64,000 bases of DNA from Oscillospiraceae bacterium (GCA_015063985.1 SVTC01000003.1:5162-69161), one strand, 5' to 3'; shown: positions 2,222 to 28,002, counted from the first letter of the stretch. Made by a program: numbers and translations. Notes: generated from the sequence alone by a model not told the origin.

Positions 2222-4093
2222 TTATTTCTCCTTTTTATTTTGTTTTTCTCTTATAGCCGAGAGAATATATCTTCCTCCGACCTCTCCCGATCTGCCAAAG
2301 TTTGAAACGTATTTTTCCCTGATCTCGAGGATCTTATCACTGTATTGGTCTGCCCGCTGCAAAAGCAAGGCTATTCTTTCGCTCAGACCATCCATAGCCG
2401 CGGGATCTACCCTTATACCGACCCTGTCTCTGAGAGAAAACTCCAAAGGCTCGATCCCAAGCTCGGTATAGCGGGGATTGTTTATCTTTGGCTTAGTATC
2501 CACAAAAACCGCGGGCTTAAGGGTAACGAAGGAAAATTCATAAGCCGTGCCCGACCAATCGGTAATAAGAACGTCACTGTCAAATATGGATGAATTACCC
2601 GAAAAATCAAGCTCGAAGCTAAGGTCGTCCCCAACCTTATCGGAATACCTTGCCACAATGGCATCCATTCTCGGGCCAAAGCGCTTTACGTATTCGGGAT
2701 GCGGTCTGATCACAAGCTGAAAGCCCTTGCCGTAAAGCTCACTGATTATCTTATCCAAGCAGCTGTCAAGGATATTATCGGGCTGCCAGGACGGAGCGAT
2801 AAGCACCTTGGGCTTTTCTCTTTGGGGCTTTTCGAGAGCAAGATAGCTTTCATAAAGCTGCTCGAGCTGACCGTAGCCTGCCGCAATAAGCTTCTTTTCG
2901 GGAAGTGAATAAAGCTTTTCAGCGGCACGGATCTCATCAAACTGAAACTCGCCCACACAAAAGACGGTATCGTAATGATCCAAGGCTCCCGTATTAAGCA
3001 CCATGTGTGTGCTCAGGGGATAATGGAACATATAGATGTACTCAATATCCTTGCGGACGTAGCTGCGCTTATAATGGAAATTATCAAGATCGGGGCAGGT
3101 CATGACCACCACGTCCGCATCCATTTTCATCATTAGTGTAATAAGCCTTGTGGGTCCGATGTAATAGGGCTTTATGCGGGGCTCGGACTCTGCCAATTTA
3201 AAGATCATATCCTTGGGATCGTTGGTAACGTAATGGATAATAACGTTGGATCTTTTCAGCAAAAACTCAATAACGTCCTTGAAGTATTTATAAAATCCGC
3301 TTTTTTCGGAATAGAAGACCAAATGCTTATTGGCAACGGAGAAAAAGCGCTTATAATCTGCCTTTTCTCTCTTTTTATCCTCGGGACTGACTCCCTTGGA
3401 CAGACCACCCATAGCCTCGAGCTCCTTTTTGCTTCTTTCCAGCTCGGCGTAATCAACGCGCTTTTTCGGATCGAGAACAAGGTTCAACACAAGCTGCTGA
3501 AGGATACTGAAAAGATTTGAGAATATCCAGTAGATCCCTACTCCGAGGCTTACGAAAAAGCCAAGAAAAAGGCTTATAAAAATGCTTATGCCGTTGGTCA
3601 TCCACTGCTCCGAGCTGCCCTGCTCCCTTTGAAGGGGATTGAGCTTATTCTGGCTTAGTCCCAACGCCAATGCGGCAAGGCCTGCGGCAAAGGGCATAAG
3701 AACGCTCAGTCCTCCCGCTTGCGAGGGAATGAGGTTAAGGGGAGTGTCTACCTCTCCCATAACACTCTTGACCGCGCCTATTACCCCGATAAGCATAACA
3801 AGCTGGATTATCATGGGAACGGTGCTTGCAAGAGGATGATAATGCTCCTTTTTATAAAGCCTTTGGGTTTCTTCGGCAATAGTGTCCTTATCGCCGTAAT
3901 ACTTTATCTTCAGAGAATTGAGCTTCGGCGTGATCCTGAGCATGGATATTGCATTCTTCTGCACCCACAGACCTACCGGAAAGAGAATTATTTTTGTAAG
4001 CAAGGTAAAAGCGATTATTGCAAGGGCATAGTTATTGATAAAGCCGTAGCAAAGCTGCAAAAGCGCAGCCAAGGGCGCAACTATTATATCCAA
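2222..4093 (-). CDS. Fusion protein: N-terminal YidC/Oxa1-family insertase domain + C-terminal CDP-glycerol glycerophosphotransferase (TagB/TagF-like) domain
   Basis: Residues ~1-230 carry YidC hallmarks (AIIAFTLLTKIILFPV, LYKKEHYHPLAS, GVGIYWIFSNLFSILQQ). Residues ~260-623 resemble the Glyphos_transf family (APSWQPDN, RPHPEY, DVLITDWSGTAYEF). Confidence 0.7.
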   Translation of the reverse strand: MDIIVAPLAALLQLCYGFINNYALAIIAFTLLTKIILFPVGLWVQKNAISMLRITPKLNSLKIKYYGDKDTIAEETQRLYKKEHYHPLASTVPMIIQLVMLIGVIGAVKSVMGEVDTPLNLIPSQAGGLSVLMPFAAGLAALALGLSQNKLNPLQREQGSSEQWMTNGISIFISLFLGFFVSLGVGIYWIFSNLFSILQQLVLNLVLDPKKRVDYAELERSKKELEAMGGLSKGVSPEDKKREKADYKRFFSVANKHLVFYSEKSGFYKYFKDVIEFLLKRSNVIIHYVTNDPKDMIFKLAESEPRIKPYYIGPTRLITLMMKMDADVVVMTCPDLDNFHYKRSYVRKDIEYIYMFHYPLSTHMVLNTGALDHYDTVFCVGEFQFDEIRAAEKLYSLPEKKLIAAGYGQLEQLYESYLALEKPQREKPKVLIAPSWQPDNILDSCLDKIISELYGKGFQLVIRPHPEYVKRFGPRMDAIVARYSDKVGDDLSFELDFSGNSSIFDSDVLITDWSGTAYEFSFVTLKPAVFVDTKPKINNPRYTELGIEPLEFSLRDRVGIRVDPAAMDGLSERIALLLQRADQYSDKILEIREKYVSNFGRSGEVGGRYILSAIREKQNKKEK

Positions 4094-4109: not shown

Positions 4110-5930
4110 TTAATAGAAATTACCGATCACGGGATTTTCTTCCAGAATGGTCCAATTATCGAAATAGCCCGCCTCTCCTTTGACAAGGTAGGTAACAAAG
4201 CTATCCTCCTTGCGGCTTTCGGAGCCCATGACGCTCTTGAAATAGTATCTGTCTATCTCCTCGTCCTCGCCGATCTCGTCAAGAGCTCTTCCGTATACTG
4301 CGGGATCGTTCACCCCAACCGCCTTCATCAACGTGGGAAGAATATTTGCGGTGCATACCTGGGCGGAGCTTTTTTTCAGCTCGACTCCCGAGGAGCCCGA
4401 GGGCTTATAGAAAATACCGATCTTGGTTGCCTTCAGCAGAGGCTTGTAATCGTTTACCGCGGAGCCGTGATCGCCTGTAATGATAATGGTGGCATCATCG
4501 TAAATACCCAGATCCTTCATCTGTTGGAAGGCATCCTTAAGAATTCTGAAGGAGCCTCTTGTCTGGGCAAGAACGTCAGTGTTGGTTTCACTGCGTGTGC
4601 CCTCCTCGGTAAGAGTATAGGGCGCGTGAGGGCCGTAAAGATGGTAAAACTTGAAGCTGTTTTGCTTCTCGGTAGCGGTTGCCGTTTCAAAGCCGGGCTT
4701 GTAGGCGGCATCGTCAAACTCGTAAAGCTTTTCAGTGTCAAGCTCGTGTATACCGTTGTTGAAATAGTTGGTATCTCCCCAGAAAAAGGGCTTTAAGCAA
4801 AGAGGCGAATAGCGGTATGCGCTGAGCTCCATCAGCTTTTTCACCGTTTGAGCGGGCTTAAGACCCAGCTTTCCGTTGGTGGCGTTGTCGACGTATTTTG
4901 ATACGTATTCCGCATCACTGAAAAGATAATCTATCTTGGTGTAAAAATCAATGGTGTAGCCTGCCCCGTCAATATCCCCAAGCACGTCCTTGCCGTTAAA
5001 GGTCCAGGAGTCCTTATAAAAATCCGCAGTGGGCATATTGTATGCCATACCGTCCGAGGCGGTCATAAGCTGATTGAGAGCAGGCTTTGTACGGGCATAG
5101 CTGCTTATAGCGTTGGTATACTGGGTAAAGCCGTCCATCCAATCAAAGCAATCGGGATCGTTTGCCATCATTCGCTCTATGTAATCGTAATCAAGTCTGT
5201 CAAGAACGAAAACGAAAACGTTTTTCCCCTCGGAGTAATCGAACATATCCTCCTGGGTGAGATAATATTCACTGATGGCTCCCTTATTCGTGCTCTTGTA
5301 CGCACCTGCAAAGATCGCCACCGTAGGCGCCGCCTGCATTACGATAAGAGCTATTGAGACCACCGTGACAAGCCCCGTCCAGACCTTTCTTTTCAGATAC
5401 AGAACGAAAAGGATCACAAGAATAATGGCTATCCAAGCCAAGACGTTGATAAGAGCATCCCCTGAGGAGGCTGACCAATCCACGGCATCTCCGGTAAGCG
5501 TGCCCATTTTACCGTTGAAAATCGCCGCCTGAAGATATCCGCAAACGGTCACTCCGAAAAGAGCGGTGATAGTATAATTATAGATCCTACCTCTGAGGAT
5601 CGAGATCACAGGTGTGACAAGCGCAAACACCGACACTGCGAGAACAGCAAGGTAGCCCGCCACGTCTTTATAAGAAAAAGTAAAGGACTTCCCTGAAAAC
5701 GCAACCATTTCCAATGGACCGAAGAAGATAAAGGTATACGCCAGCGCCGCCATAACAAGCGCCGAGATCCCAAGCCTTTTCCAATAGCTTCTTTTATCGC
5801 TCCAAAGCGCCGTAAGCTTTTTGGCAATAACGCCGGGATCATTTAATTTTTTCTCTTTTACAGCTTCCGTTACCCTTTCTTCCGCCTTACTGTCGGAGGG
5901 CTCGGTGCTTTTTATCTCTTTTTCTTCCAT
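4110..5930 (-). CDS. LTA-synthase/sulfatase-like membrane phosphotransferase (alkaline-phosphatase superfamily)
   Basis: N-terminal multi-TM region followed by an extracellular domain with NVFVFVLD, HLYGPHAPY and TGDHGS motifs. It sits 16 nt upstream of the YidC-TagF gene. Confidence 0.7.
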   Translation of the reverse strand: MEEKEIKSTEPSDSKAEERVTEAVKEKKLNDPGVIAKKLTALWSDKRSYWKRLGISALVMAALAYTFIFFGPLEMVAFSGKSFTFSYKDVAGYLAVLAVSVFALVTPVISILRGRIYNYTITALFGVTVCGYLQAAIFNGKMGTLTGDAVDWSASSGDALINVLAWIAIILVILFVLYLKRKVWTGLVTVVSIALIVMQAAPTVAIFAGAYKSTNKGAISEYYLTQEDMFDYSEGKNVFVFVLDRLDYDYIERMMANDPDCFDWMDGFTQYTNAISSYARTKPALNQLMTASDGMAYNMPTADFYKDSWTFNGKDVLGDIDGAGYTIDFYTKIDYLFSDAEYVSKYVDNATNGKLGLKPAQTVKKLMELSAYRYSPLCLKPFFWGDTNYFNNGIHELDTEKLYEFDDAAYKPGFETATATEKQNSFKFYHLYGPHAPYTLTEEGTRSETNTDVLAQTRGSFRILKDAFQQMKDLGIYDDATIIITGDHGSAVNDYKPLLKATKIGIFYKPSGSSGVELKKSSAQVCTANILPTLMKAVGVNDPAVYGRALDEIGEDEEIDRYYFKSVMGSESRKEDSFVTYLVKGEAGYFDNWTILEENPVIGNFY

Positions 5931-7299: not shown

Positions 7300-10200
7300 T
7301 CAGATCTCTTGGTACACAACGGGAGAAGCGTCAAAATCCACCTCAAGGGCTGTGATCTTGTTATCCTTAAGCAGTAAAAATTCCTGCTTGGAGCTTCCCT
7401 GCAAAACCGCTTTGCCATCCTCATAGGTGACTACGTCGCAATCTTCACTCTGGCAAAGTATACCCACCTTGCCATTCACGCTGAGCTTTTTCACAACGCC
7501 CAATCCAAGGGTCACGGGATAGCAGTCATCTCCTATGCAAACACGTGCTCTTCTCTGCTTATCGGCATCGTTCCACCAGTCAACGGCAACAAGATATGCC
7601 TCCTTGGTACCGTCCTCCAACTCGTACACCACTGCTTGGACGTCATCGCCCACCTTGACCTTGACATCCTGCGCCTCGAAGGCCTCGTCGCTATATCTTT
7701 CGAAGCTTTCGGTGTAGAGCTCCTTGATAGCCTCGTTCGCAGGATAAAGAAGGGTATTAAAAATAATTATCTTTCCTTCCCCAACCTTCTTTTCAGCCAT
7801 CAAGGGATATCCCTTTTGGGTCCTCTCCTTTATATCAAGTCCGTACAGGGAAAGGTTTGTTGCTACGGGAACGGTATTGCCGTTAAAATCATCCTGCTCG
7901 ATCTTTGGAACGCCTGCATATCCGATGGCATCCAAAAGCTCGTTTTCAAAGAAATCGAGCTCGTATTTCTCGGTCTTTTCTCTGAGGGAGGTACAGGAAA
8001 GATGACCGAGAGTAAGCTGAAGCACGGCACCCTTTCTGACCTTTTCGAGAATACGCTCAAGATCCTTCTTCTCGGCAAGGTTGTATCCGAAGAAGCAAAG
8101 GAAGGGATAATCCTTGAAATCCTCCTCCACGGGGATTATATTCATCGAGCCTCTGGGGTTCTGGCTGACAAGTCCGATCTTGCCGTTCTTGGTGTCGGCA
8201 TTTCCGCTTGTGGCAGGCCATTTGCTGTGAGGATAGAAGCTATGTCCGGGGATCCTCCAAGAAAGCTCCGCATCAAATTTTCTGGAAAAACGTGCGGCGG
8301 TATTTCCCCAGACACATCCGCCAAAGCAGGGCGCGCCGTCGCATCTGCCGTGGAGAACGCCCACGGTTGCCGCAAGTCTTCCCCTTCTGGAATGGGTGGA
8401 GATCCATCTGTAGAAGTCCTTTTGCTGATCAAGGTGAGATCTGCAGGCAATGCCGTGACGGTTGTGGAAGGCATATCTTTCTTCAAGCCTCCAAAGACCC
8501 TCTTCGGTGTTATTTTCGTGAGCACCCTGCATCCAGGATACGTAGAGCGCAAGGCGGTATCTGCGGTAATGGCCCTCTTCGTCGTGGGGCTGAGTAGACC
8601 ACTGCAAAGCGTGATGTACACCCACTCTTGGAATATTATAAGCCTCAGCCGCTCCTCTTAATGCCGCCATAAGAAATTCCGTGGGGCTGTCCATAGTCTC
8701 TGCACCGATCCAGGAATATCCCGCCTGACAGAAATACTTAAAGAAGATGCTGGGTCCGGTATGTCGGGTAGCGCCGGTGCAGTCCTTTGCAATGGTTCTC
8801 AAAGAATTTATCACCGCGTTTGCCTGGATCGCACTGTCTGCGGCAAGCTTGGGATCGTGGCAGAGCCACATAAGCTTTCCGTCATCAAACTGGTCCTCGG
8901 GGTAGAATTCACTGCCGGCGTGCTCGGGATCGGCGTGTCTGTATCTGTTGAACTGATCAAAATACAGAGCCGTATCATAGAATTTATTCATATTCCAGAA
9001 ATCACCGTTATTGTCGTGGGCACCCCAATAGCAGTATGCACCGTCTCTCTCGTGAAGCTGTCTGCCCAAAAATCCCGAAGGCTCGCCTGTGTCCTCGCCA
9101 AGCTCCGAAAGGGAGGGCTGAGCGCAATAGCCTGAGGGCTCTCTGCCGTCCACCATATGGGAATATTTCATTCCAAGAGAGTTCATCAGCTTAACAAACT
9201 TCTTCCACATGGGCTTGTTGAGCATTCTCGTTCCGCTCCAACGGTAGGTGGGACGGATGGTAAGCATATTACCGACGCGGTTTTGCATATACCACTTGAT
9301 GTAATTAAAGGTATCGTGATCGGTCTGCTCAACGTAGATAAGGTCGCCCGTACCGGTGATAACACCGTCGGAAAATCTGCGGATCACTCTGCCTATCTTC
9401 ACGTTGTGAGTGGTCTCGCCGTCGGAAAGAGCTATCTCAAGACCGTTCTGGAGCTTATTGGAAACAAGCCTCAGTGCCGCAAGACCTTCGCTTTCAAATA
9501 CAAGGGAGGAAACTACCGCGGCACTGCTTTCCACCTTCAGAGTGCAGGGCTTATGAATATCCAGCATCAGGCTGAATTCCTCGCCGCATACCGCCACCTC
9601 GGGAAAGCTTACAACGTCAAAGCTGTTCTTATCCTCGGATACTATTCCCACCTCGTGCAAACGGTACGGAAGTGCGCCGAACCAATCGGAAAGAAGGGTG
9701 AATCTTATACTGTTCTTTCCCTTCTTCATCACTCCGTCGGGAAGGGTTATCTCCTTTTCCGAATATCTGTGACACCTTTCAAAGAAAATGTCGCTGAAGA
9801 CCTCGGTGCCGTTTACCTCAATTCCCATCTTGGGCCATTCGCTCTTGGATAGATTTACTCCATACCAGTTGAACATATACTGATATATGGCGCTGTCTCT
9901 TGCAAAGCCGGGCATTATATTAAAGCCGTCGGAGGTGACAAGAGCGGGATGCTCAAAGTAGATATCACCCTCGGTCAATTCCGTTTCAAGAGAATAAATT
10001 ATATTGGCAGTGGTCTCCTTGGGCAAATTGAGCTTCACCGAGAACTCCTGCCAATCGTAGCTGCCCCGGGGGAAATCTATATCAATAATGGAGTCTGCGG
10101 GATATTTGGTGTGATTGTTATAGAAGTCTTCGCTCTTTTTGTTTCTTACCTCAATACGGAGTCTGGCATAGCCGCCCTCCTTTACCTTCAGCCCGTCTGC

Positions 10201-10551
10201 CTTGGCACGGACGGACAAAACGTAATCCTCCGTGGGGGAATGAAGACCGAGATAGGAAAGTCCCAGCGGAAACGCCATCTTTCTGAAGGCGCAACGGGGA
10301 AAATCGGCTCCCTCGAATTTAAGCGCCCAGGCATCCTCTTCTCCGGGAACAAGGCTTTCGTCAATGCGCTTGTACATCGTGGGGCAGCAATATTCGCACT
10401 TCCAGAAGTAGAAGTTATCCACCTCGCCGGTGAAAAATACTCGGTGCTCCTTTCCCGCTTCAAGATCGTAATCAAACTCAAACTCAAAGCTCTGAGAGGG
10501 CTTTATCTTTTGGTCATCCTCTTTGTAAAATATCTGTGTATACTTTTCCAT
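7300..10551 (-). CDS. Large cytoplasmic protein of unknown family (1083 aa); possible glycan-processing enzyme by context
   Basis: Long uninterrupted ORF. I prefer the start at MEKYTQIFY (ATG 10551-10549) because GGAGGAAGCT lies directly upstream. No signal peptide and no motif I can assign. It is divergent from the GH20 triplet. Confidence 0.6.
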   Translation of the reverse strand: MEKYTQIFYKEDDQKIKPSQSFEFEFDYDLEAGKEHRVFFTGEVDNFYFWKCEYCCPTMYKRIDESLVPGEEDAWALKFEGADFPRCAFRKMAFPLGLSYLGLHSPTEDYVLSVRAKADGLKVKEGGYARLRIEVRNKKSEDFYNNHTKYPADSIIDIDFPRGSYDWQEFSVKLNLPKETTANIIYSLETELTEGDIYFEHPALVTSDGFNIMPGFARDSAIYQYMFNWYGVNLSKSEWPKMGIEVNGTEVFSDIFFERCHRYSEKEITLPDGVMKKGKNSIRFTLLSDWFGALPYRLHEVGIVSEDKNSFDVVSFPEVAVCGEEFSLMLDIHKPCTLKVESSAAVVSSLVFESEGLAALRLVSNKLQNGLEIALSDGETTHNVKIGRVIRRFSDGVITGTGDLIYVEQTDHDTFNYIKWYMQNRVGNMLTIRPTYRWSGTRMLNKPMWKKFVKLMNSLGMKYSHMVDGREPSGYCAQPSLSELGEDTGEPSGFLGRQLHERDGAYCYWGAHDNNGDFWNMNKFYDTALYFDQFNRYRHADPEHAGSEFYPEDQFDDGKLMWLCHDPKLAADSAIQANAVINSLRTIAKDCTGATRHTGPSIFFKYFCQAGYSWIGAETMDSPTEFLMAALRGAAEAYNIPRVGVHHALQWSTQPHDEEGHYRRYRLALYVSWMQGAHENNTEEGLWRLEERYAFHNRHGIACRSHLDQQKDFYRWISTHSRRGRLAATVGVLHGRCDGAPCFGGCVWGNTAARFSRKFDAELSWRIPGHSFYPHSKWPATSGNADTKNGKIGLVSQNPRGSMNIIPVEEDFKDYPFLCFFGYNLAEKKDLERILEKVRKGAVLQLTLGHLSCTSLREKTEKYELDFFENELLDAIGYAGVPKIEQDDFNGNTVPVATNLSLYGLDIKERTQKGYPLMAEKKVGEGKIIIFNTLLYPANEAIKELYTESFERYSDEAFEAQDVKVKVGDDVQAVVYELEDGTKEAYLVAVDWWNDADKQRRARVCIGDDCYPVTLGLGVVKKLSVNGKVGILCQSEDCDVVTYEDGKAVLQGSSKQEFLLLKDNKITALEVDFDASPVVYQEI

Positions 10552-10678
10552 AGCTTCCTCCGCTTTTTTACTTACCCAAAGACTAACACAAACCACTGAA
10601 AAAGTCAAGTTATTCTTCGGATATTCTTGTATGATGTAATAAATTTTTTTAATAATATCACAAAGTATTTTTTTAATA

Positions 10679-10707
10679 TTGACACTAAAACCACTTTATG
10701 CTATTCT
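10679..10707 (+). promoter_or_regulatory. Candidate sigma-A promoter for GH20 copy 1
   Basis: TTGACA, 17-nt spacer, TATTCT, about 50 nt upstream of the start codon. Confidence 0.4.
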
Positions 10708-10759
10708 TGCCTCGGAAAAGATCCGTCCCGGGTCGTAAATTCTTTTACAGGAGAAAAAA

Positions 10760-12658
10760 ATGATAAAGCTTGATTTTGAAAATATTCACGAAAGCCTTAA
10801 GGCTCCCGCTCTGGAGGCATTGGAGCTTCTTGACATCGAGGAGGGCGAGCACGGTATACCCGTAATCGCAGAAAACAAGGGCGACGGGCTGGAAGTATAT
10901 TTTTCCAACAACGGCGCTCTTGTTATTGAATACAGCCGACTTTGCGAATTCTTCCGCGGGCTTTCCCACGTAAAGAAAATAGTTAACGACGGTATTCCCG
11001 TAAGGGAAAAGGCACACTTTGAGTGGCTGACCTATATGGCGGACGTTTCAAGAGGCGGAGTTCACAACGTAAAAAGCGTCAAGCTTTTGATAAAATATCT
11101 CGCTCTTATGGGATATAACGATCTTATGCTCTACACCGAGGATACCTATGAGCTGCCCAAATACCCATACTTCGGTCACCAGAGAGGAAAATATACCCTC
11201 GCCGAATTAAGAGAGCTTGTGGAATACGCAGAATTATTCGGTGTCACACTCTCGCCCTGCATCCAGACACTGGGTCATCTTTTCTCCGCTCTCAAGTGGC
11301 CCTGCTTTTCAAACATTAAGGACACTTCGGACGTGCTCTACGTGGGCAAAGAAGAGACCTATGAATTTCTCGACTATATGTTCGAGACCCTTTGCAGCGT
11401 ATTCAAGACCCGCCGCTTCAACATAGGTATGGACGAGGCACACTCTCTCGGCACAGGCGCAAGGCTTGAAAAGGAGGGACACGTAAGCCGCGGCAAGCTT
11501 ATGGAGATCCACCTGAAAAGAGTCGCCGAGCTTTGCAAAAAGCACGGTATCAAGCCTCTTATCTGGAGCGATATGTTCTTCAGACCCTACGCCGACGATA
11601 TCTACTATTCAAAGGACGTGGTAATTCCGCAAAGCGCCATAGACTCCGTTCCCGAGGGCTTTACCCCGGTCTACTGGGACTACTACAATTTCGACAGAGA
11701 CGAGGAATCCAAGGCCATATTTGACAATATGATGGCTCAGCATCTGCGCTTTAAAGGCCCCATCGGCTTTGCGGGCTGCACCTGGAGATATCTGGGCTTT
11801 GCCCCCAACAACGCCTTCAGCCTTATTTCAAGCAAATACCATGCGGATTCCTGCCTTGAGCACGGCATAAGGGATATTACCGTCACCTCCTGGAGCAACA
11901 ACGGCTGTGAGGCAAGTATGTTCTCCGCCTTCCCCGCAATGCTTCTCTATGCACAAAAGCTATATACCGGCTGCAGAGGCGAAACAGACGTTTCGGGTAT
12001 GCTCTACGACATTTTCGGAGTAAGTCTTGAGGATTTTATTCTTCTGGATCAGCCCAACAGAGTTCCCGATGCTCCCGGAATAGAGGTAAGCGCAGGCAGA
12101 AACCCCTGCAAATGGCTCTTATACAACGACTGTCTCTGCGGAAAAATGGACAGACACATCTCCACGGAATACGCTCCCTTCTACGCCGAGCTCAGTGAAA
12201 AGCTATATGCAAAAAAGGACTTAAAGCGCTTCGGCTACGTTTTTGAGACCCTGGGCGCTCTTTGTAAGGTCCTTGCTACGAAGGCAACACTGTCCGTAGA
12301 GCTTAGAAACGCCTACCTTTCGAAGGATCTTAAACGCCTAAAGGAGGTCTCGGATTCCATAACCCCGATGATAGAGGATCTGGACGTCTTTACGGAAGTC
12401 TACAGAAGACAATGGTTTAAAGAGAACAAGCTCTTCGGATACGAGTCCCCGGAAATGCGCTTCGGCGCCATAAGACAAAGAGCTCTGGGCACTCAAAAGA
12501 CCGTCGAGGCATACTTAAAGGGCGAGCTTGATTCCATCGAGCCGCTGGAGGAGGCGGTCTTATATTCCGATTGCAGACCCGACGACTCCCCCAGAAACAA
12601 GGTTGCAACAGTGGAAAACTACTTTGACTGTGTTCCCGTCACCTTTTCTCTGAGATAA
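10760..12658 (+). CDS. Glycoside hydrolase family 20 beta-N-acetylhexosaminidase-like protein, paralog 1
   Basis: FNIGMDEAH matches the GH20 catalytic (H/N)xGxDE signature within a TIM-barrel-like core. No signal peptide. RBS is ACAGGAGAAA. Confidence 0.75.
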   Translation: MIKLDFENIHESLKAPALEALELLDIEEGEHGIPVIAENKGDGLEVYFSNNGALVIEYSRLCEFFRGLSHVKKIVNDGIPVREKAHFEWLTYMADVSRGGVHNVKSVKLLIKYLALMGYNDLMLYTEDTYELPKYPYFGHQRGKYTLAELRELVEYAELFGVTLSPCIQTLGHLFSALKWPCFSNIKDTSDVLYVGKEETYEFLDYMFETLCSVFKTRRFNIGMDEAHSLGTGARLEKEGHVSRGKLMEIHLKRVAELCKKHGIKPLIWSDMFFRPYADDIYYSKDVVIPQSAIDSVPEGFTPVYWDYYNFDRDEESKAIFDNMMAQHLRFKGPIGFAGCTWRYLGFAPNNAFSLISSKYHADSCLEHGIRDITVTSWSNNGCEASMFSAFPAMLLYAQKLYTGCRGETDVSGMLYDIFGVSLEDFILLDQPNRVPDAPGIEVSAGRNPCKWLLYNDCLCGKMDRHISTEYAPFYAELSEKLYAKKDLKRFGYVFETLGALCKVLATKATLSVELRNAYLSKDLKRLKEVSDSITPMIEDLDVFTEVYRRQWFKENKLFGYESPEMRFGAIRQRALGTQKTVEAYLKGELDSIEPLEEAVLYSDCRPDDSPRNKVATVENYFDCVPVTFSLR

Positions 12659-12668
12659 AGCTTGCTTA

Positions 12669-12704
12669 AGCTATACCGGTTTTTCAACGGGTATAGCTTT
12701 TTTT
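12669..12704 (+). terminator. Intrinsic terminator after GH20 copy 1
   Basis: 9-bp stem agctatacc / ggtatagct, 12-nt loop, T7 run. Confidence 0.65.
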
Positions 12705-12705
12705 C

Positions 12706-12734
12706 TTGACATTGACATTGCTTTGGGATATACT
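12706..12734 (+). promoter_or_regulatory. Candidate sigma-A promoter for GH20 copies 2-3
   Basis: TTGACA (a duplicated TTGACATTGACA), 17-nt spacer, TATACT. Confidence 0.5.
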
Positions 12735-12767
12735 AAGCTCATCATCCCCACTACCACAGGAGGAAAT

Positions 12768-14663
12768 ATGATAAAGCTCGATCTGAAAAACCTCCCCGAA
12801 GATCTCAGATCCTCGGCCCAGGAAGCATTGGAGCTTCTTGACATCGAGGTGTGCGATAATGCCACCCCTCTTATAGCCAAAAGCTGCAGCGACGGCTTGG
12901 AGGTATATTTTGACAATGACGCCATAGTCATAAAATACAGCCATCTTTGCGAGTTTTTCCGCGGGCTTTACAAAATAAAAGCTCTTGTCAGAAACGGTAC
13001 TCCGGTTAAGGAAAAGGCTCATTTTGACTGGCTGAGCTATATGGCGGACGTTTCAAGAGGCGGAGTATTTAATTTAAAAACGGCAAAGCTTTTAATTAAG
13101 TACCTTGCTCTTATGGGATATAACGATCTTATGCTCTATATGGAGGACGTATACGAGCTTCCCAAATACCCCTACTTCGGTCACCACAGAGGAAGATACA
13201 CCCTCGATGAATTAAGAGAGCTGGTGGAATACGGCGAAAGATTCGGCGTGACCCTCACCCCCTGCATCCAGACTCTCGGACATCTGCGCTCCATGCTCCG
13301 TTGGCCCTGCTTTGCAAGCATCAGGGACACTGACGACGTGCTCTACGTCGGCAAGGATGAGACCTACGAATTTCTGGATTACGTATTCGAGACTCTTTGC
13401 AGTGTATTCAAGACCCGCCGCTTCAACATAGGTATGGACGAGGCACATTCCCTCGGAACAGGCGCAAGGCTTGAAAAGGAGGGCTTCGTTCCAAAGAGCG
13501 AGCTGATGAGGATCCACCTAAAAAGAATAGCCGAGCTTTGCAAAAAGCACGGCATCAAGCCGCTTATCTGGAGCGATATGTTCTTCAGGCCCCTCAATCC
13601 CGACAACGAGTATTACAGCGCAGATCTGCAGGTGCCCGATGAAGTTATAAACAGTGTACCCGAGGACTTCACATTGGTTTATTGGGAATACTATAACTGC
13701 GATATGACCGATGAATTAAAGGCCATATTCGACAATATGATGGCTCAGCATCTCAGATTCAACAACCCCACAGCCTATGCGGGCTGTACCTGGAGATGGG
13801 TGGGCTTTGCTCCGAAAAACGCCTTCAGTATGCTCACAAGCAATTATCACGTGAACGGCTGTCTTGACAACAATATCCGTGATATTACCATGACCTCCTG
13901 GAGCAACGACGGCAGTGAGTCAAGTCATTTCTCCGCGATTCCCGCGGTTATGCTTTATGCGGAAAAGCTTTATACCGGCTCAAGGGAAAGACTTGATATT
14001 TCCGATGCGCTTTTTGATATTTTCGGCTTGACCTTGGACGACTACCTGCTTTTGGACGAGCCCAACCGAGTTCCGGGCTCTCCTCCCACAAGGCTCTCAC
14101 AAGGTAAGAATCCCTGCAAGAATCTCTTTTATCAGGACTGTCTTTGCGGAAAAATGGATGCGCACTCCGATCCCTCCTACAAGGCTTTTTACGCAGAGCT
14201 CAGCAAAAAGCTGTATGCGAAAAAGGACGTAAAACGCTTCGGTTATCTTTTTGAGGTTCTGGGCGCCCTTTGCCAAGTACTCAAGACCAAGGCAACTCTA
14301 TCACTTGATCTGAGAAAGGCATATCTTGAAAACGACCGCCAAAGGCTTGACGAGCTTTGCTGGGAAATCGACACGATGATAGCCGACCTGGACGTATTCA
14401 CAGAGCTCTTCAGAAAGCAGTGGCTCAAGGAATACAAAATGTGGGGCTATGAAAATATAGAGATGCGCTTCGGCTCCGTAAAGGAACGAGCCATCGGCAC
14501 CAAAAAGACGGTGCGGGAATATCTCAACGGAGAGCTGGAGGCAATAGAGCCGCTGGAGGACGAGGTGCTCTACTTTGATTGCAGACCCGCAGACTCCGAA
14601 AAAAACAAGATAGCATCCATAGGACACTATCTGCAATGCACACCGATAAATTATTTACTTTGA
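12768..14663 (+). CDS. GH20 beta-N-acetylhexosaminidase-like protein, paralog 2
   Basis: Collinear with paralog 1 and has the same NIGMDEAH motif. The start is set at MIKLDL (ATG 12768) behind a CAGGAGGAAAT RBS rather than the track start at 12723. Confidence 0.75.
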   Translation: MIKLDLKNLPEDLRSSAQEALELLDIEVCDNATPLIAKSCSDGLEVYFDNDAIVIKYSHLCEFFRGLYKIKALVRNGTPVKEKAHFDWLSYMADVSRGGVFNLKTAKLLIKYLALMGYNDLMLYMEDVYELPKYPYFGHHRGRYTLDELRELVEYGERFGVTLTPCIQTLGHLRSMLRWPCFASIRDTDDVLYVGKDETYEFLDYVFETLCSVFKTRRFNIGMDEAHSLGTGARLEKEGFVPKSELMRIHLKRIAELCKKHGIKPLIWSDMFFRPLNPDNEYYSADLQVPDEVINSVPEDFTLVYWEYYNCDMTDELKAIFDNMMAQHLRFNNPTAYAGCTWRWVGFAPKNAFSMLTSNYHVNGCLDNNIRDITMTSWSNDGSESSHFSAIPAVMLYAEKLYTGSRERLDISDALFDIFGLTLDDYLLLDEPNRVPGSPPTRLSQGKNPCKNLFYQDCLCGKMDAHSDPSYKAFYAELSKKLYAKKDVKRFGYLFEVLGALCQVLKTKATLSLDLRKAYLENDRQRLDELCWEIDTMIADLDVFTELFRKQWLKEYKMWGYENIEMRFGSVKERAIGTKKTVREYLNGELEAIEPLEDEVLYFDCRPADSEKNKIASIGHYLQCTPINYLL

Positions 14664-14677
14664 TAAGGAGAGAAAAA

Positions 14678-16579
14678 ATGATAAAGCTTGATTTTGAAAA
14701 TCTTCCCGAAAGCCTTAAGGCACCCGCTCTGGAGGCATTGGAGCTTCTTGACATCGAGGAGGGGGAGCACGGCATACCGGTGATAGCGGAAAATAAAGGC
14801 GACGGCCTTGAGGTATATTTTTCCAACAACGGCGCTCTTGTTATTGAATACAGCCGTCTTTGCGAGTTTTTCCGCGGACTTTCCCACGTAAAGAAAATAG
14901 TTAACGACGGCATTCCCGTAAAGGAAAAGGCGAATTTTGAGTGGCTGACCTATATGGCTGACGTTTCAAGAAACGGAGTTATGAATCTCGATACGGCCAA
15001 GCTTATGATAAGATACCTTGCTCTTATGGGCTACAACGATCTTATGCTCTACACAGAGGATACCTACGAGCTTCCCAAATACCCTTATTTCGGTCACCAG
15101 AGAGGTAAATACACCTTGGAGGAGATCAAGGAGCTTATCAGCTACGGCGAAGACTTCGGCATAACCCTTTCTCCCTGCGTCCAGACTCTCGGTCATTTCC
15201 GTATGCCCCTTATCTGGCCCTGCTTTTCCGACATCAAGGACAGCTCCGAGGTGCTCTACGTTGGCAAGGAGGAGACCTACGAATTTCTGGATCATATGTT
15301 CGAGACCCTCTGCAGCGTATATAAGACCAGGCGCTTTAACATCGGAATGGACGAGGCGCATACCCTCGGAAAGGGCAGAAGGCTGGAAAAGGAGGGCTAC
15401 GTCAAGAAAAGCGAGCTGATGCAGATCCACCTCAAAAGAGTTGCCGAGCTCTGCAAAAAGCACGGCATCAAGCCACTTATCTGGAGCGATATGTTCTTCA
15501 GACCCCATACTCCCCACAACGGCTACTACAGTGCAGACGTAAGCGTGCCCGACGAGGTGATAAAGGGAGTCCCCGAGGACTTCACTCTGGTATACTGGGA
15601 TTATTACAACTGCGATATGAATCCCGATTCAAAATCCAAATTCGACCATATGATAAGCGAGCACAAGCGCTTCAACAATCCCATAGCCTTTGCAGGCGGA
15701 AGCTGGAAGTGGACGGGCTACGCTCCCAACAACGCCTTCAGCCTCAACTCAAGCAACTACCACGTAAACTCCTGCCTTGAAAACGGTATCAGAGACATCA
15801 CGGTCACCGCCTGGGGCGACGACGGCGCCGAGGCAAGCACCTTCAGCGCTCTGCCCGCAATGCTTCTCTATGCCGAAAAGCTATACAAGGGCGACACGTC
15901 AGATCACGATATATCCGATGCATTTTACGATATCTTCGGCGTGAAGCTGGAGGACTTTATGCTTCTCGATCTTCCCAACGCAGTTCCCGATTGCCCCGAG
16001 CTTAAATTCAACTGCAGCAAGAATCCTTCAAAATACCTTCTCTACAACGACTGTCTCTGCGGAAGGCTGGATGCTCACATCTCTTTCTCCTACAGAGCCT
16101 ACTACGCCGACACTGCAAGGCTGCTTGAAAAATACGTTGACCTTCCCCGTTTCGGTTACCTGTTCAAGACCCTGGCATCTCTTTGCAGGGTCCTCACAAA
16201 CAAAGCCACTCTATCGATAGATCTGAGAAGCGCATATCTTGAAAAGGACAATGCAAGGCTTAAGGCTCTGTGCGAAACCGTTGATACTCTTGTCAGCGAT
16301 ATAGACGCCTTTATAAACGATCTCAGAGAGCAGTGGTACAGCGAAAACAAGCTCTTTGGCTTCGAGACCCTTGAAATGCGACTCGGCTCCGTAAGACAGA
16401 GAGCCATCGGCGCAAGGATCACCGTTGAAAAGTATCTTAGCGGCAAGCTGAAAAAAATAGAGCCCCTCGAGGAGGCTGTGCTCTATTCGGATTGCAGAGA
16501 GGCCGACAGCGACAAGAGCAAGGTGTTATCCATTTCCATATACAACCAGTGCGTTCCCGTTACCTCACTTCAGGATTAA
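14678..16579 (+). CDS. GH20 beta-N-acetylhexosaminidase-like protein, paralog 3
   Basis: Collinear with paralogs 1 and 2. The start is set at MIKLDF (ATG 14678) behind an AAGGAGAGAAAAA RBS, 14 nt after the stop of paralog 2. Confidence 0.75.
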   Translation: MIKLDFENLPESLKAPALEALELLDIEEGEHGIPVIAENKGDGLEVYFSNNGALVIEYSRLCEFFRGLSHVKKIVNDGIPVKEKANFEWLTYMADVSRNGVMNLDTAKLMIRYLALMGYNDLMLYTEDTYELPKYPYFGHQRGKYTLEEIKELISYGEDFGITLSPCVQTLGHFRMPLIWPCFSDIKDSSEVLYVGKEETYEFLDHMFETLCSVYKTRRFNIGMDEAHTLGKGRRLEKEGYVKKSELMQIHLKRVAELCKKHGIKPLIWSDMFFRPHTPHNGYYSADVSVPDEVIKGVPEDFTLVYWDYYNCDMNPDSKSKFDHMISEHKRFNNPIAFAGGSWKWTGYAPNNAFSLNSSNYHVNSCLENGIRDITVTAWGDDGAEASTFSALPAMLLYAEKLYKGDTSDHDISDAFYDIFGVKLEDFMLLDLPNAVPDCPELKFNCSKNPSKYLLYNDCLCGRLDAHISFSYRAYYADTARLLEKYVDLPRFGYLFKTLASLCRVLTNKATLSIDLRSAYLEKDNARLKALCETVDTLVSDIDAFINDLREQWYSENKLFGFETLEMRLGSVRQRAIGARITVEKYLSGKLKKIEPLEEAVLYSDCREADSDKSKVLSISIYNQCVPVTSLQD

Positions 16580-16588
16580 GGGATATCA

Positions 16589-16622
16589 ATGCCCCGAGAG
16601 TATAGCCTCGGGGCATTATTTT
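16589..16622 (+). terminator. Intrinsic terminator after GH20 copy 3
   Basis: Stem atgccccgag / ctcggggcat followed by TATTTT. Confidence 0.7.
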
Positions 16623-16624
16623 GA

Positions 16625-16862
16625 GCATAACAAAAGCCGCAATGCCAAAAAGCATTGCGGCGATTTTTTTGACTCCCCCACCGAGCCGTGTGTCCAAGGA
16701 AGAGACCCTGCGCATGCAAGGGCGGTACCCGCTCTCTTGTTACAGTGCTCCCAACTTCCATCCGCAGAAAACAGACGGGAGGTCTGCAGCCACTTCGAGA
16801 ATAAGGGTTCCAATTAATCTTTGTGGGTCCACGCATCGGACTTCACGTGCTAAGCAGGTTAA
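16625..16862 (-). ncRNA. Candidate structured non-coding RNA or long structured 3'UTR (class unresolved; 6S-like closed rod is one possibility)
   Basis: GC-rich gap with no credible ORF or RBS. On the minus strand, the 5' arm (16825-16852) and 3' arm (16684-16708) pair as AGC/GCU, CGUG/CACG, GUCC/GGAC and GACCC/GGGUC, separated by internal loops. A terminator hairpin at 16636-16661 is followed by UUUUGUU. Confidence 0.4.
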
Positions 16863-16868
16863 AAAAGC

Positions 16869-25053: not shown

Positions 25054-28002
25054 ATGAAAAAAATCATATCGATCGTGCTTGCTTTAGTTATGATCGTTCC
25101 TATGATGTGCTTCAGCGCTTCTGCTGCTGCAAGCATCACACCGGACACGTCATGGTACGACGCAAGCAAGTCGGAATTTGTGATCGACTCAGCTGCCGAT
25201 CTCTATGGCTTTGCTCAGCTTGCAAACGGTGGAAATACCTTTGCAGGTAAGACAGTCAAGCTCGGCGCAGACATCACGATCAACGAAGGAAAAGCCTCCG
25301 ATTGGGCTTTGGCTCAGGATAACGATTCCTTCTTAGAGCTTGAGCTCATCAGATGGACTCCCATTAATGGCTTTGCAGGAACCTTTGACGGCCAGGACCA
25401 TACCATCAGCGGTGTGGCAAGCTTGGGTGCTTATTCGGCTCTTTTCAAAAGCACAAGCGCCAATTGCGTTATCAAAAATCTTAACGTTGTAAACAGCTAC
25501 TTCTGTGATCCTTCAGAAACCGGATTTGTAGGTGTTGTTTCTTCCATCGGCGGAGGAAACTTCGAAAAGATCTATTCCGACGCATACTCTTACACAAAGG
25601 GTCACCATGCAGGCGGTATCTTCGGATGCGCTACTGCTCCCGTAACTGTTAAGAACTCCTGGTTTGACGGCTCTGTTTTACTGGGACGCAGATTCGGCGG
25701 CGGTATCGTCGGTAACGGAAACGGCAACGTTGTCGTTATCGAAAACTGTCTCAACTCCGGCTCTGTACATTCCAAGGAAGTACAGTATCAGCTTGCTCAC
25801 ATCGGCGGTATGTGCGGACGTAACGACAGCTTCACCACCATCAAAAACTGTCTCAACGTAGGCGCTATCACCTCCGACTACTCTAATGCAGGAGTAAACG
25901 ACGTTCTCGGCGGCATCTTCGGTGCTAACTCCCAGGGCGACGCTACCAAGGGCGGAACCGTTATTGAAAACTGCTGGACCACTGTTGAGTCCTGCGTTAA
26001 GGCAGTAGGTACGACCGGTCCTGCCGCATCCGCAAAGATCGACGTTAACGTTATCAGCGAGTCTCTTCTTGTCGGCTACGGCGCATACACCAACACAACT
26101 CTCGACTTTGAAAACGTTTGGGCAGTAGATACTGACGGTTACCCCGTTTTGCAGTGCTTTGCCGATGTAATTCCCACTCTTTACAAGGTCAACAATCCCC
26201 AGATCGTTGATTACGAGGTCAAAGCTGAAGGCTTCTACGGCCCCAGATGGTACGTTGAGCTTGAGATTCCCGAAGGAATGACCAAGGACAACGTCACTCT
26301 CGGCGCTCTTATCGTTCCTACCAAGGCTCTTCCCGCAGGCCGCGAGATCGGCTTGAACGATGAGTCCCTTACTTACAGAGACGTTGAGTACAAGGTAGCA
26401 AACGTTGAAGCAAAGATATTCCGTGAGAGTGAAGAAGGCAAGCTTCTGGCTTCCTTTGTCATCACAGATCTTGATGCCGAGCTTGTTCGCACCTCCTTTA
26501 CTCTTAAGCCCTATGCCATCTATACAGTAAAAGAGGGCGATATCATTTCCTACGGCGACAGTGCAAGCGCAGCCTTCTACAAGGATGCAGTTCTTGAAAG
26601 CAAGGATAGCGCTACCGCTGCTGAAAAGAAGGCTCTTCTTGACAAGGTCCTGGCTCCCATATACGAAGGTCTGGGCGGCGAATTCCCCGTTATCGAGGAA
26701 TGGAGCGAGATTGACGAATTCGTCGAGGTTCCCGCATACAAGGCCGATTCCATCGCTATCAACCCCGCAGAGGATTACGGTCCCGAGCACGCAGAGGCAG
26801 GTAATCCCACCAAGGTGATCCGTCTTGACAATGCAGAGGATAAGCACTACTACGAATACAGAAAGCTGCTTGAGCAGTTTGGCTTTAAGCTCTACGTTGA
26901 TAACGGCGAGACCGGTCTGAACGATTCCGTTTACACCGCTATCTACACCAAGGGCGACCTTGTTGTTACCGTTACCATGATCAGCTATCAGTTCCAGCTC
27001 TACGTAACCGCAACCTACGATATGCCTCTTTCCGAGCATCTCTTTGACAACTTCAAGGATGAAGCGGTTGCAGGCGCAAAGGACAGCTTGAGTATGCTTG
27101 AAATGAACAACTGGGGTAACAGCTTCGTTATCCAGCTCAAGAACGGTCACTTCCTCGTAAACGACGGTGCAGGTGACGAAGAGTTCCCCTACCTTATGCA
27201 GTACCTCCAGAAGCTGGCAGGCGAAGGCAAGCCCGTTGTAATCGAGGCTTGGTTTGTTACCCATGCTCATTACGACCACTACTGTATTATCAGAGGACTT
27301 GAGAAGCATCCCGAATTCCTTCCCGAGGAGTTCTACGTAGAAGGCTTCTACATCAACTTCCCCAGCTATGATGTCAACCAGTTTGACCTCGGCGTTTACA
27401 ATGAGATCCCTCAGGTAGTTTCCGCAATCAAGACTGTTAAGACCACAAAGGGAACCACTCCCGAGATCTACAGACCTATGACCGGCCAGAGATACTATTT
27501 CTGCGATTCTATCGTTGAAATTCCCCATTCTCAGGAGCAGCTGACCACCGATGAATATTACGTCAGATCCTCACAGAAGCAGTTCAACGATTCCTCCACA
27601 TGGTACAAGCATTACCTCAACGTTGGAAACGGCGAATACCAGACCTTCCTCGTCGGCGGTGACAGCGACCATGGCGGACAGCAGGAATTGATGTGGAACT
27701 ACGACGAGGAATACCTCGACGTTGATATCACTGCTGTGCTTCACCACGGTTACAACAGCTGGAATGAATTCACAGACTTCATCAGCTACAAGACTCTTCT
27801 CGTTCCTCAGAGAGAGAAGAACCTCGGCGCTGAAACCAGCTATGCTTACACCTTTGCCGAAGAGTACTTCTTCGAGGGCAACGGAAACGTGATGCTCACC
27901 TTCCCCTATAAGGTTGGAGAGGCTGTTCAGAAGCATGAATTCCAGTGGGAATATGCTTCTGTATACGGCGGAGTAAACGGTCAGAAGAAGGGAGGCGCTT
28001 AA
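25054..28002 (+). CDS. Secreted multidomain protein: signal peptide + GLUG-type repeat region + C-terminal metallo-beta-lactamase-fold domain
   Basis: The signal peptide is MKKIISIVLALVMIVPMMCFSASA. Repeated GG(I/M)xG...I(K/E)NC units appear at about residues 185-320. The MBL signature is VTHAHYDHY plus a later GGDSDHGG...VLHHG. Confidence 0.7.
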   Translation: MKKIISIVLALVMIVPMMCFSASAAASITPDTSWYDASKSEFVIDSAADLYGFAQLANGGNTFAGKTVKLGADITINEGKASDWALAQDNDSFLELELIRWTPINGFAGTFDGQDHTISGVASLGAYSALFKSTSANCVIKNLNVVNSYFCDPSETGFVGVVSSIGGGNFEKIYSDAYSYTKGHHAGGIFGCATAPVTVKNSWFDGSVLLGRRFGGGIVGNGNGNVVVIENCLNSGSVHSKEVQYQLAHIGGMCGRNDSFTTIKNCLNVGAITSDYSNAGVNDVLGGIFGANSQGDATKGGTVIENCWTTVESCVKAVGTTGPAASAKIDVNVISESLLVGYGAYTNTTLDFENVWAVDTDGYPVLQCFADVIPTLYKVNNPQIVDYEVKAEGFYGPRWYVELEIPEGMTKDNVTLGALIVPTKALPAGREIGLNDESLTYRDVEYKVANVEAKIFRESEEGKLLASFVITDLDAELVRTSFTLKPYAIYTVKEGDIISYGDSASAAFYKDAVLESKDSATAAEKKALLDKVLAPIYEGLGGEFPVIEEWSEIDEFVEVPAYKADSIAINPAEDYGPEHAEAGNPTKVIRLDNAEDKHYYEYRKLLEQFGFKLYVDNGETGLNDSVYTAIYTKGDLVVTVTMISYQFQLYVTATYDMPLSEHLFDNFKDEAVAGAKDSLSMLEMNNWGNSFVIQLKNGHFLVNDGAGDEEFPYLMQYLQKLAGEGKPVVIEAWFVTHAHYDHYCIIRGLEKHPEFLPEEFYVEGFYINFPSYDVNQFDLGVYNEIPQVVSAIKTVKTTKGTTPEIYRPMTGQRYYFCDSIVEIPHSQEQLTTDEYYVRSSQKQFNDSSTWYKHYLNVGNGEYQTFLVGGDSDHGGQQELMWNYDEEYLDVDITAVLHHGYNSWNEFTDFISYKTLLVPQREKNLGAETSYAYTFAEEYFFEGNGNVMLTFPYKVGEAVQKHEFQWEYASVYGGVNGQKKGGA

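Follow-up and report, generated by a model that had tools for sequence, protein, structure and literature searches.

A 64,000-nucleotide (nt) stretch of DNA from an Oscillospiraceae bacterium (GCA_015063985.1, SVTC01000003.1:5162-69161), hereafter called the window, carries three intact genes set head to tail on the + strand, all encoding proteins of the GcnA/GH20C subgroup of glycoside hydrolase family 20 (GH20). A preliminary description of this DNA had reported three collinear copies of 632, 631 and 633 amino acids (aa), and open reading frames (ORFs) of these lengths were found exactly where it had placed them, at 10760-12658 (c1), 12768-14663 (c2) and 14678-16579 (c3). At the amino-acid level, c1 and c2 are 68% identical, c1 and c3 69%, and c2 and c3 64%. 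The copies differ in the -1 subsite of the active site: c3 carries the canonical motifs of the family (GGSWKW and WGD), c1 carries a non-canonical set of residues (C340, R343, Y344, S379 and N380) that we call c1-type, and the mosaic copy c2 has the same C, R, S and N, but a Trp at the position of Y344.

The GH20 catalytic domain PF00728 was detected in the three proteins with 45-48 bits (Pfam cut-off 22.3) and the subgroup-specific C-terminal helical domain PF18088 (Glyco_H_20C_C) with 157-167 bits (Pfam cut-off 27); no NCBIfam model matched c1, c2 or c3. The nearest sequence matches in the PDB were GH20C from Streptococcus pneumoniae (SP_2141; PDB 5a69, 5ac4, 5ac5) and GcnA from Streptococcus gordonii (PDB 2epk-2epo), with E values of 1e-115 to 1e-123. 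Like these two enzymes, c1-c3 have a GH20b-like N-terminal domain, a (beta/alpha)8 GH20 barrel and the helical PF18088 domain, at 31-33% sequence identity. An AlphaFold2 model of c1, with a predicted local distance difference test (pLDDT) score of 92.6, aligned over its full length (~630 columns) with GcnA 2epo and GH20C 5a6k, giving template modelling (TM) scores of 0.90 and 0.89. Residue roles were taken from PMC11308363, which covers the -1 subsite and catalytic pair of GH20C, and from PMC4449183, and were mapped by alignment to GH20C. The catalytic Asp-Glu pair, D225-E226 within NIGMDEAH (11432-11437 in c1), is invariant in c1-c3 and aligns to GH20C D222/E223; R98, W269, W306, Y308 and W378 are also invariant and align to R94, W266, W306, Y308 and W373. 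The catalytic pair, the Arg, the Trp cage and the Tyr are conserved as in GH20C and GcnA. Between c1 and its 93% identical orthologue s1, located on contig L089 from sample ERZ27227503, the ratio of non-synonymous to synonymous differences per site (pN/pS) is ~0.10. By homology, the locus would encode three exo-beta-N-acetylhexosaminidases with substrate-assisted catalysis. As previously described, none of the proteins has a signal peptide: read directly from the sequence, a hydrophobic N-terminus is present in none of them. Because their N-termini are acidic and hydrophilic, c1-c3 are presumably cytoplasmic, like the streptococcal GH20C and GcnA enzymes, which lack a signal peptide.

We observed that the closest pair of copies changes along the gene, as the preliminary description had noticed, identity being far from uniform. 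In sliding windows, nt identity between c1 and c3 was ~0.9 in nt 1-300 and ~0.7 elsewhere, identity between c1 and c2 peaked at nt 391-540, 631-720, 961-1050 and 1381-1530, and identity between c2 and c3 peaked at nt 781-960. A label permutation agreed with this pattern: along 659 informative sites, the label of the agreeing pair changed 327 times, whereas 10,000 permutations gave 438 +/- 12 changes and never fewer than 395, and the best c1=c3, c1=c2 and c2=c3 segments each had a permutation p <= 6e-4. Bootstrapped segment trees also gave different topologies for codons 1-98 and for the gene body. The blocks of c1=c2 agreement described near NIGMDEAH (SLGTGARLEKEG, KAIFDNMMAQHLRF) and the block of c2=c3 agreement after the FFRP motif were all present in the alignment, and around IHLKRVAELCKKHGIKPLIWSDMFFRP all three copies are nearly identical. 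The earlier explanation of this patchwork, recombination or gene conversion between the paralogues, stood in part: it is decisive for the N-terminus of c1 and c3 and supported for c1 and c2, whereas the agreement of c2 and c3 after FFRP appears to be mostly ancestral retention. The proposal that some regions are diversifying was not borne out, since pairwise pN/pS is below 1 everywhere, though c1 and c2 do carry substitutions at family-invariant positions of the -1 subsite.

The clearest signal joins the 5' ends of c1 and c3. Codons 1 to ~98 of c1 (10760-11055, + strand) and of c3 (14678-14973, + strand) are ~92% identical at the nt level. Over these first 98 residues the two proteins differ at exactly the four positions counted in the preliminary description (I9L, H10P, R82K and H86N), and the DNA differs at 24 of 294 nt, mostly at synonymous sites as had been stated (20 synonymous and 4 non-synonymous changes). 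Synonymous divergence (dS) between c1 and c3 is 0.41 in this tract, with a non-synonymous divergence (dN) of 0.018, and 1.1-1.6 elsewhere. The N-terminus of c2 is distinct, with 63-65% identity. For comparison, we used contig L081, a related metagenome contig from sample ERZ25021430 with just two tandem genes, o1 (77% identical to c1) and o3 (P0004, the orthologue of c3). When the amino-acid sites of the quartet c1/c3/o1/o3 were sorted according to whether they group the proteins by genome, by orthology or in the third way, the counts were 24:0:0 in codons 1-98 and 8:60:2 after them. Likewise, 62 nt sites in codons 1-98 group by genome and none by orthology, and a run of 62 informative sites has a single exception. 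In the tree of codons 1-98, c1, c3 and P0001, a close orthologue of c1, form a group with 100% bootstrap, and o1 and o3 pair together. Beyond codon 98, c1 joins o1 with 99-100% bootstrap in four of the five segment trees (the fifth, for the short 471-510 segment, gave no resolution), as it does in the full-length tree, and c3 joins o3 in codons 99-240 (93%). In the tract, pN is 0.02 between c1 and c3 and 0.07 between o1 and o3, versus 0.23-0.26 between genomes. These results are decisive for gene conversion between c1 and c3 in codons 1-98, and the same N-terminal region has been homogenised independently in the L081 lineage. Purifying selection is ruled out as the cause of the near-identity, since between genomes no segment is less conserved than the N-terminus (65% identity versus 75-87% in most others).

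In the model of c1, the tract ends at the YMADVSR motif and takes in the GH20b-like domain I (to about residue 83) together with barrel strand 1 (residues 89-95). When s1 was included, nt 1-138 favoured c1=s1 (12:4) and nt 139-294 favoured c1=c3 (13:5; Fisher p = 0.015). Because the two parts of the tract favour different partners, this suggests more than one c1/c3 conversion event. The outgroups gave no resolution of the direction, donor or acceptor, of this conversion. As a control, a tandem pair from a third lineage (L086-L088) was examined and showed no N-terminal homogenisation. This pair, located at 6055-9902 of L086 and also found in L087 and L088, consists of GH20C-type genes of 634 and 633 aa separated by 41 nt and adjoining a primary sigma-factor gene, and its members fall in different subclades. 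Besides, at 2037-2161 of L089 we found a terminator and promoter spacer followed by a gene that starts with ATGATTAAGCTTGATTTTGAA (MIKLDFE), which is c1/c3-like and unlike the MIKLDLK of c2; the contig ends there. This gene, which comes after s1, may be orthologous to c2 and have had its 5' end homogenised; alternatively, the array may hold two copies.

A second exchange, between c1 and c2, is supported over codons ~81-250, approximately 11000-11509 (+) on the c1 side, a region that includes the catalytic D225-E226. A second patch with moderate support covers codons ~450-529 at the start of the C-terminal helical domain (approximately 12107-12346, +, on the c1 side). Between c1 and c2, pN is 0.09 in codons 99-240, versus 0.16 between c1 and o1, and in the second patch the values are 0.13 and 0.22. 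In sliding windows, c1 was nearer to c2 than to its own orthologue o1 in codons ~81-250 and ~451-530, and much nearer to o1 in codons 251-450 and 531-633. Triplet counts were 21:13:9 in codons ~81-250 versus 7:49:5 in codons 251-450, and this heterogeneity of topology between regions is significant (chi-square p = 1.4e-5). Moreover, o1 shows no rate acceleration relative to nine outgroups. With c1 nearer to c2 than to its orthologue, heterogeneous counts and no acceleration of o1, we take it as supported that c1 and c2 exchanged sequence in both stretches (codons ~81-250 and ~451-530). For the catalytic block, where the agreement of c1 and c2 had been taken as conversion, the exchange is supported, but much of the agreement is shared ancestry, N323, C340, R343, S379 and N380 being present in o1 too.

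The agreement of c2 and c3 after FFRP has a different origin in our reading. The loop that follows FFRP in c1, P0001 and o1 is derived and has a 1-residue deletion, whereas c2, c3, o3 and the outgroups have the family consensus. As the derived loop of c1 is common to o1 and P0001, the state found in c2 and c3 would be mostly a retained ancestral one. The block that had been described as a piece of the patchwork is thus real as an agreement, and its explanation by conversion is mostly replaced by ancestral retention. The excess of c2-c3 over c3-o3 similarity is small, and the evidence for additional conversion is weak (triplet heterogeneity p = 0.028). We therefore regard as unlikely, though still worth weighing, that repeated conversion among all three copies produced the entire patchwork, the c1=c2 catalytic blocks and the c2=c3 block that follows FFRP included. 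Such conversion would account for the significance by permutation of the best segment of each pair, for a pN in codons 241-315 that is lower between c2 and c3 (0.11) than between c3 and o3 (0.18), for a composition-controlled nt quartet of 8:1:3 (c2 with c3 against o3 with c1 coming first) and for the triplet heterogeneity just mentioned. However, shared ancestry together with change in the c1 lineage, as seen in the derived loop with its deletion in c1, o1 and P0001, explains most of this. After FFRP, c2 and c1 are equally distant from the outgroups (0.43, versus 0.37 for c3), whereas a recent copy of c3 would not be expected to lie so far out, and pS in this segment is saturated (0.63). The active-site residues common to c1 and c2 are also found in o1 and P0006, and are hence synapomorphies of a clade.

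Outside the main tract, synonymous sites are saturated (dS of 1.1-1.8), and for this reason the duplications are ancient. The preliminary description had spoken of a triplication; as one recent event, this does not hold, given the saturated dS and a c1-type/c3-type pair that predates the split from the L081 lineage. The active-site motifs of the c3-type proteins and their C-terminal ending, ...LQD, are common to the nearest outgroups, so the canonical c3-type looks ancestral and the c1-type derived. Both types would already have been present before the split from the L081 lineage, and c2 would be a further c1-type copy, known only from the present species. In the tree, c2 branches with the c1-type proteins (98% bootstrap). 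A search for c2 orthologues among 5.8 billion clustered proteins returned only c2 itself (P0005), the next protein being a c1-type one at 66% identity; either L081 has lost this gene or sampling of it is poor. A second GH20C copy was found nearby in only 1 of 80 loci from GTDB species, showing that tandem multiplicity is uncommon in the GcnA/GH20C family. Among 185,579 GTDB species representatives, the best relative of c1-c3 has 50% identity. The species thus seems to be missing from the GTDB collection or not to be a representative there. DNA identical to the window was found in at least three metagenome assemblies.

The existence of a two-copy arrangement in L081 leaves room for another history, in which an ancestor with two copies underwent unequal crossing-over between c1 and c3, and c2 arose as the hybrid. 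In its favour, c2 is nearly equidistant from c1 and c3 (pN of 0.20 and 0.23) and has both c1-like and c3-like segments. We consider it very improbable, because a duplicated spacer would be expected on either side of the middle gene, where spacers of 109 nt and 14 nt are found, and a single junction with a c3-like 5' part and a c1-like 3' part would be expected rather than the alternating patches seen. Furthermore, c2 is deeply diverged from both other copies in codons 316-470 and 511-632 (pN of 0.23-0.30) and has its own N-terminus, with 63-65% identity.

Even less credible is an explanation without any recombination, in which the mosaic among old paralogues comes only from constraint that differs by region and from rates that changed in particular lineages. 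That constraint is uneven along the gene is clear from the near-identity of the copies around IHLKRVAELCKKHGIKPLIWSDMFFRP, and a lineage-specific derived loop does exist in c1 and o1. Nevertheless, constraint cannot make paralogues of the same genome closer to each other than to their orthologues, as is the case for 24 versus 0 N-terminal amino-acid sites, and the segment in question has the lowest conservation between genomes (65% versus 75-87% identity in most other segments). Nor does it explain the fall of dS from more than 1.1 to 0.41 inside the tract, or the greater proximity of c1 to c2 than to an orthologue that is not accelerated in codons 81-250. For codons 1-98, this explanation is refuted. 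Finally, that the near-identity of the 5' ends of c1 and c3 is an assembly chimera has next to no chance of being right, although tandem paralogues are a known source of mis-assembly in metagenomes: with 24 differences in 294 nt, the two arms were not collapsed; contigs L082 and L083, from two other samples and obtained with different assembly tools, are 100% identical to the window over the whole array; contig L084, which reaches from the end of c2 through c3 into the downstream region, is 99.95% identical there; and another organism (L081) shows this pattern too. As independent contigs carry the identical array, it is not an assembly artefact.

The copies also differ in their active sites. 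At the acidic position of the -1 subsite, c3 has D381 together with W345, c1 has N380 with Y344, and c2 has an Asn with a Trp. An Asp was found at this position in 111 of the 114 homologues with a readable motif, and in 100% of a separate 114-sequence alignment that excludes the c1-type clade. In c1, c2, o1 and P0006 we found N323, C340, R343, S379 and N380, where 114 other members of the family have H, G, K, G and D (96-100%). By their fold and catalytic machinery, both c1 and c2 belong to the family, but their subsite is non-canonical. GH20C is an exo-beta-hexosaminidase that accepts GlcNAc (N-acetylglucosamine) and GalNAc (N-acetylgalactosamine) (PMC5215778, PMC11308363). Its Asp375 forms hydrogen bonds with O4 and O6 of GlcNAc and with O6 of GalNAc, and its Trp339 packs on the hydroxymethyl group (PMC11308363). 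Asp375, equivalent to D376 of GcnA, is replaced by Asn in c1 and c2, and Trp339 is replaced by Tyr in c1. GcnA is a homodimer formed via the C-terminal domain, with the C-terminal tail of the partner entering the -1 subsite (PMC4449183). This domain is the most diverged part of the copies (pN of 0.26-0.32), and their tails end in ...VTFSLR (c1), ...INYLL (c2) and ...VTSLQD (c3). The Asn and Tyr substitutions point to a functional divergence of the copies at the C4-C6 edge of the -1 sugar. That the c1-type proteins (c1, c2, o1, P0001 and P0006) form a new specificity class of the GcnA/GH20C subgroup, defined by the Asp-to-Asn replacement and a remodelled GGxWKW motif (Gly to Cys, Lys to Arg and, in c1, Trp to Tyr), is a tentative idea that we hold to be rather doubtful. 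If it were true, the c1-type enzymes may act on N-acetylhexosamines that bear a negatively charged or bulky substituent at C6 or C4 (6-sulfo or 6-phospho) or on another epimer. In that case, one canonical and two specialised enzymes would make up the array, with conversion tolerated only in the substrate-neutral GH20b domain.

Upstream of c1, a sigma-70 promoter is predicted at 10679-10707 (+; TTGACA-17-TATTCT, with an extended -10 TG), and its sequence is kept upstream of the 93% orthologue in L089. The gene is followed by an intrinsic-terminator-like hairpin of 13 bp with a U-run (12668-12706, +; dG of -16.7 kcal/mol, z of -4.1, with 0 of 200 shuffles folding as well), which directly abuts the predicted promoter of a c2-c3 unit (12706-12734, +; TTGACA-17-TATACT, which matches at 11 of 12 positions, better than any other in the region). 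This terminator and promoter occupy the 109-nt spacer between c1 and c2; only 14 nt separate c2 from c3. The same layout, a terminator and then a promoter, recurs in L081, where it separates the two genes, and in L089, where it follows the c1 orthologue. The own terminator of c1 and the separate promoter of c2-c3 that had been proposed earlier were thus both predicted here, which suggests two transcription units, c1 alone and a c2-c3 bicistron. No Rfam match was obtained in the leaders 10600-10760 and 12658-12768, where regulatory RNAs were sought.

Altogether, we give a probability of about 0.8 to the following reading as a whole: old GH20C paralogues, later subject to partial conversion and arranged in two predicted transcription units. 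RecA-type homologous recombination between misaligned copies would have overwritten parts of the paralogues. The first ~295 nt, from the ribosome-binding-site/ATG region to the YMADVSR motif, were homogenised between the non-adjacent c1 and c3, probably more than once, and barrel segments (codons ~81-250) and the start of the helical domain (~451-530) were exchanged between c1 and c2. The regions that define each copy, namely the loop after FFRP, the GGxWKW and WGD motifs, the dimer-forming C-terminal domain and the C-terminal tail, remain orthologous and divergent, which is consistent with selection rejecting conversion there. Several points weigh against this reading. Just one orthologous locus with two genes (L081) and one close relative with a single gene (L089) were available, so the comparisons that concern c1-c2 and c2-c3 rest on few sequences and no c2 orthologue. 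Saturation outside the main tract leaves older events undatable. The 3' boundary of the tract coincides with a motif that is identical in all copies, so the end of the tract could merely mark a place of easy heteroduplex resolution and not selection. The promoters and terminators are consensus predictions only. In addition, the nt patterns that group sequences by genome outside the N-terminus are confounded by a difference between genomes in GC content at third codon positions (GC3 of 0.60 versus 0.74). Clusters of this kind in codons 121-150, 181-210 and 241-270 were rejected as conversion since they are largely due to codon usage (e.g. AAA AGA versus AAG CGG).

Downstream of c3, a GC-rich hairpin with T-runs on both strands (16636-16661) is the probable terminator of the c2-c3 unit and/or belongs to a convergent small-RNA region. 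The overlapping stretch 16584-16666 (-) gave sub-threshold matches to ncr1175 (33 bits, gathering score 60) and Srn266; it essentially consists of two terminator-like hairpins, and probably corresponds to terminators only. Between c3 and a DUF1292 gene, 16671-16863 (-) matched RF00013 (6S/SsrS RNA) over model positions 1-187 of 187, below threshold (32 bits versus a gathering score of 46.4), with an E value of 0.002 in a 12-kb search and 5e-5 in a local one. This stretch folds as a long imperfect rod with an energy no better than that of shuffles (z of -0.67), and may be a divergent 6S RNA.

As for the neighbouring genes, the absence of a nearby transporter was upheld: no Pfam transporter domain was detected in the large ORFs scanned, from 1 to ~46 kb of the window. 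The array is flanked by the housekeeping genes murI, ddl, rny and ymdB, and by genes for an extracytoplasmic function (ECF)-type sigma factor and an LtaS-like protein. The neighbours form no glycan-processing locus and do not indicate the substrate. A 606-aa ORF at 4110-5930 (-) has a Sulfatase-family domain at residues 238-540 only, in an LtaS-like layout. It adjoins a 623-aa ORF at 2222-4093 (-), in which a YidC/60KD_IMP domain is fused to a weak CDP-glycerol glycerophosphotransferase-like region. This pair looks like cell-envelope machinery of the teichoic-acid type and not like glycan desulfation. A link to sulfated glycans through the 606-aa protein was rejected, because its domain layout (238-540) and its fused YidC-like/glycerophosphotransferase neighbour point to an LtaS-type enzyme rather than a glycan sulfatase. 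Further downstream, a 982-aa ORF at 25054-28002 (+), located after an AraC regulator and a GH4 gene, had no more than a faint match to metallo-beta-lactamase, at residues 688-756. In L085, the gene directly upstream of the GH20C homologue P0006 encodes a 424-aa protein that faintly matches Lactamase_B.

Divergent from c1, a 1083-aa ORF at 7300-10551 (-) was matched by nothing in Pfam, NCBIfam or, at the sequence level, the PDB. The identical protein is listed at NCBI as a 'hypothetical protein' of a Ruminococcaceae metagenome-assembled genome, and ~118 homologues were found. Its AlphaFold2 model (pLDDT 91.9, predicted TM score 0.91) shows N-terminal beta-sandwich domains, a TIM barrel, a GH42M-like alpha/beta domain and a beta-sandwich, and matches a GH35 beta-1,2-glucosyltransferase, a GH164 beta-mannosidase and GH42 beta-galactosidases with 10-11% identity, Foldseek E values of ~1e-13 and TM scores of ~0.5. 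E501 (in QLHERDG) and E683/E684 (in NTEEG) are invariant and lie at strand ends, like the acid/base and the nucleophile of clan GH-A. The protein is a candidate for an uncharacterised glycoside hydrolase family. A functional coupling between this gene and the GH20 array was rejected: its homologues occurred in 0 of the 85 other GH20C loci fetched, so their adjacency is not conserved.

Compared with known systems, the locus differs from S. pneumoniae, where GH20C is a single gene in a carbohydrate-processing locus (PMC5215778), by its three tandem paralogues, and from GH20C itself by the Asn in place of Asp375 in c1 and c2 and the Tyr in place of Trp339 in c1. Concerted evolution by conversion has been described for bacterial duplicates such as the rRNA operons and tufA/tufB (surveyed in PMC6053082). 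As in these cases, paralogues are closer to each other than to their orthologues, the tract is contiguous and sharp-ended with a lowered dS, and homogenisation recurs in separate lineages. Unlike them, conversion between c1 and c3 is limited to ~15% of the gene (one domain and one strand) while the remainder diverges, and it joins non-adjacent copies, skipping c2 in the middle. Human HEXA and HEXB encode paralogous GH20 alpha and beta subunits that dimerise, each one completing its partner's active site, and GcnA is likewise a homodimer. The two human subunits differ from each other at an acidic-to-Asn position that governs the acceptance of negatively charged substrates. The Asn of c1 and c2 sits elsewhere than HexA alpha-N423, at the position of GH20C D375, the equivalent of HexB E491 (PMC4449183). 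In c1-c3, the C-terminal domain, which would form the dimer, is the most diverged part.

Partial conversion between bacterial duplicates is well known (PMC6053082) and the GcnA/GH20C enzymes are structurally characterised, the c1-type active site being the sole non-routine element. The two points that follow leave the current understanding of GH20 enzymes and of gene conversion unchanged. First, the array is a clean bacterial case of domain-restricted concerted evolution, in which one module of a glycosidase is kept alike in two lineages and the substrate-facing and dimer-forming parts diverge. As a caution, trees of such carbohydrate-active enzyme paralogues based on the N-terminal region will mis-assign orthology. 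Second, if the c1-type Asn alters specificity, it would provide a new activity for a GH20 subgroup that has so far been represented by two streptococcal enzymes.

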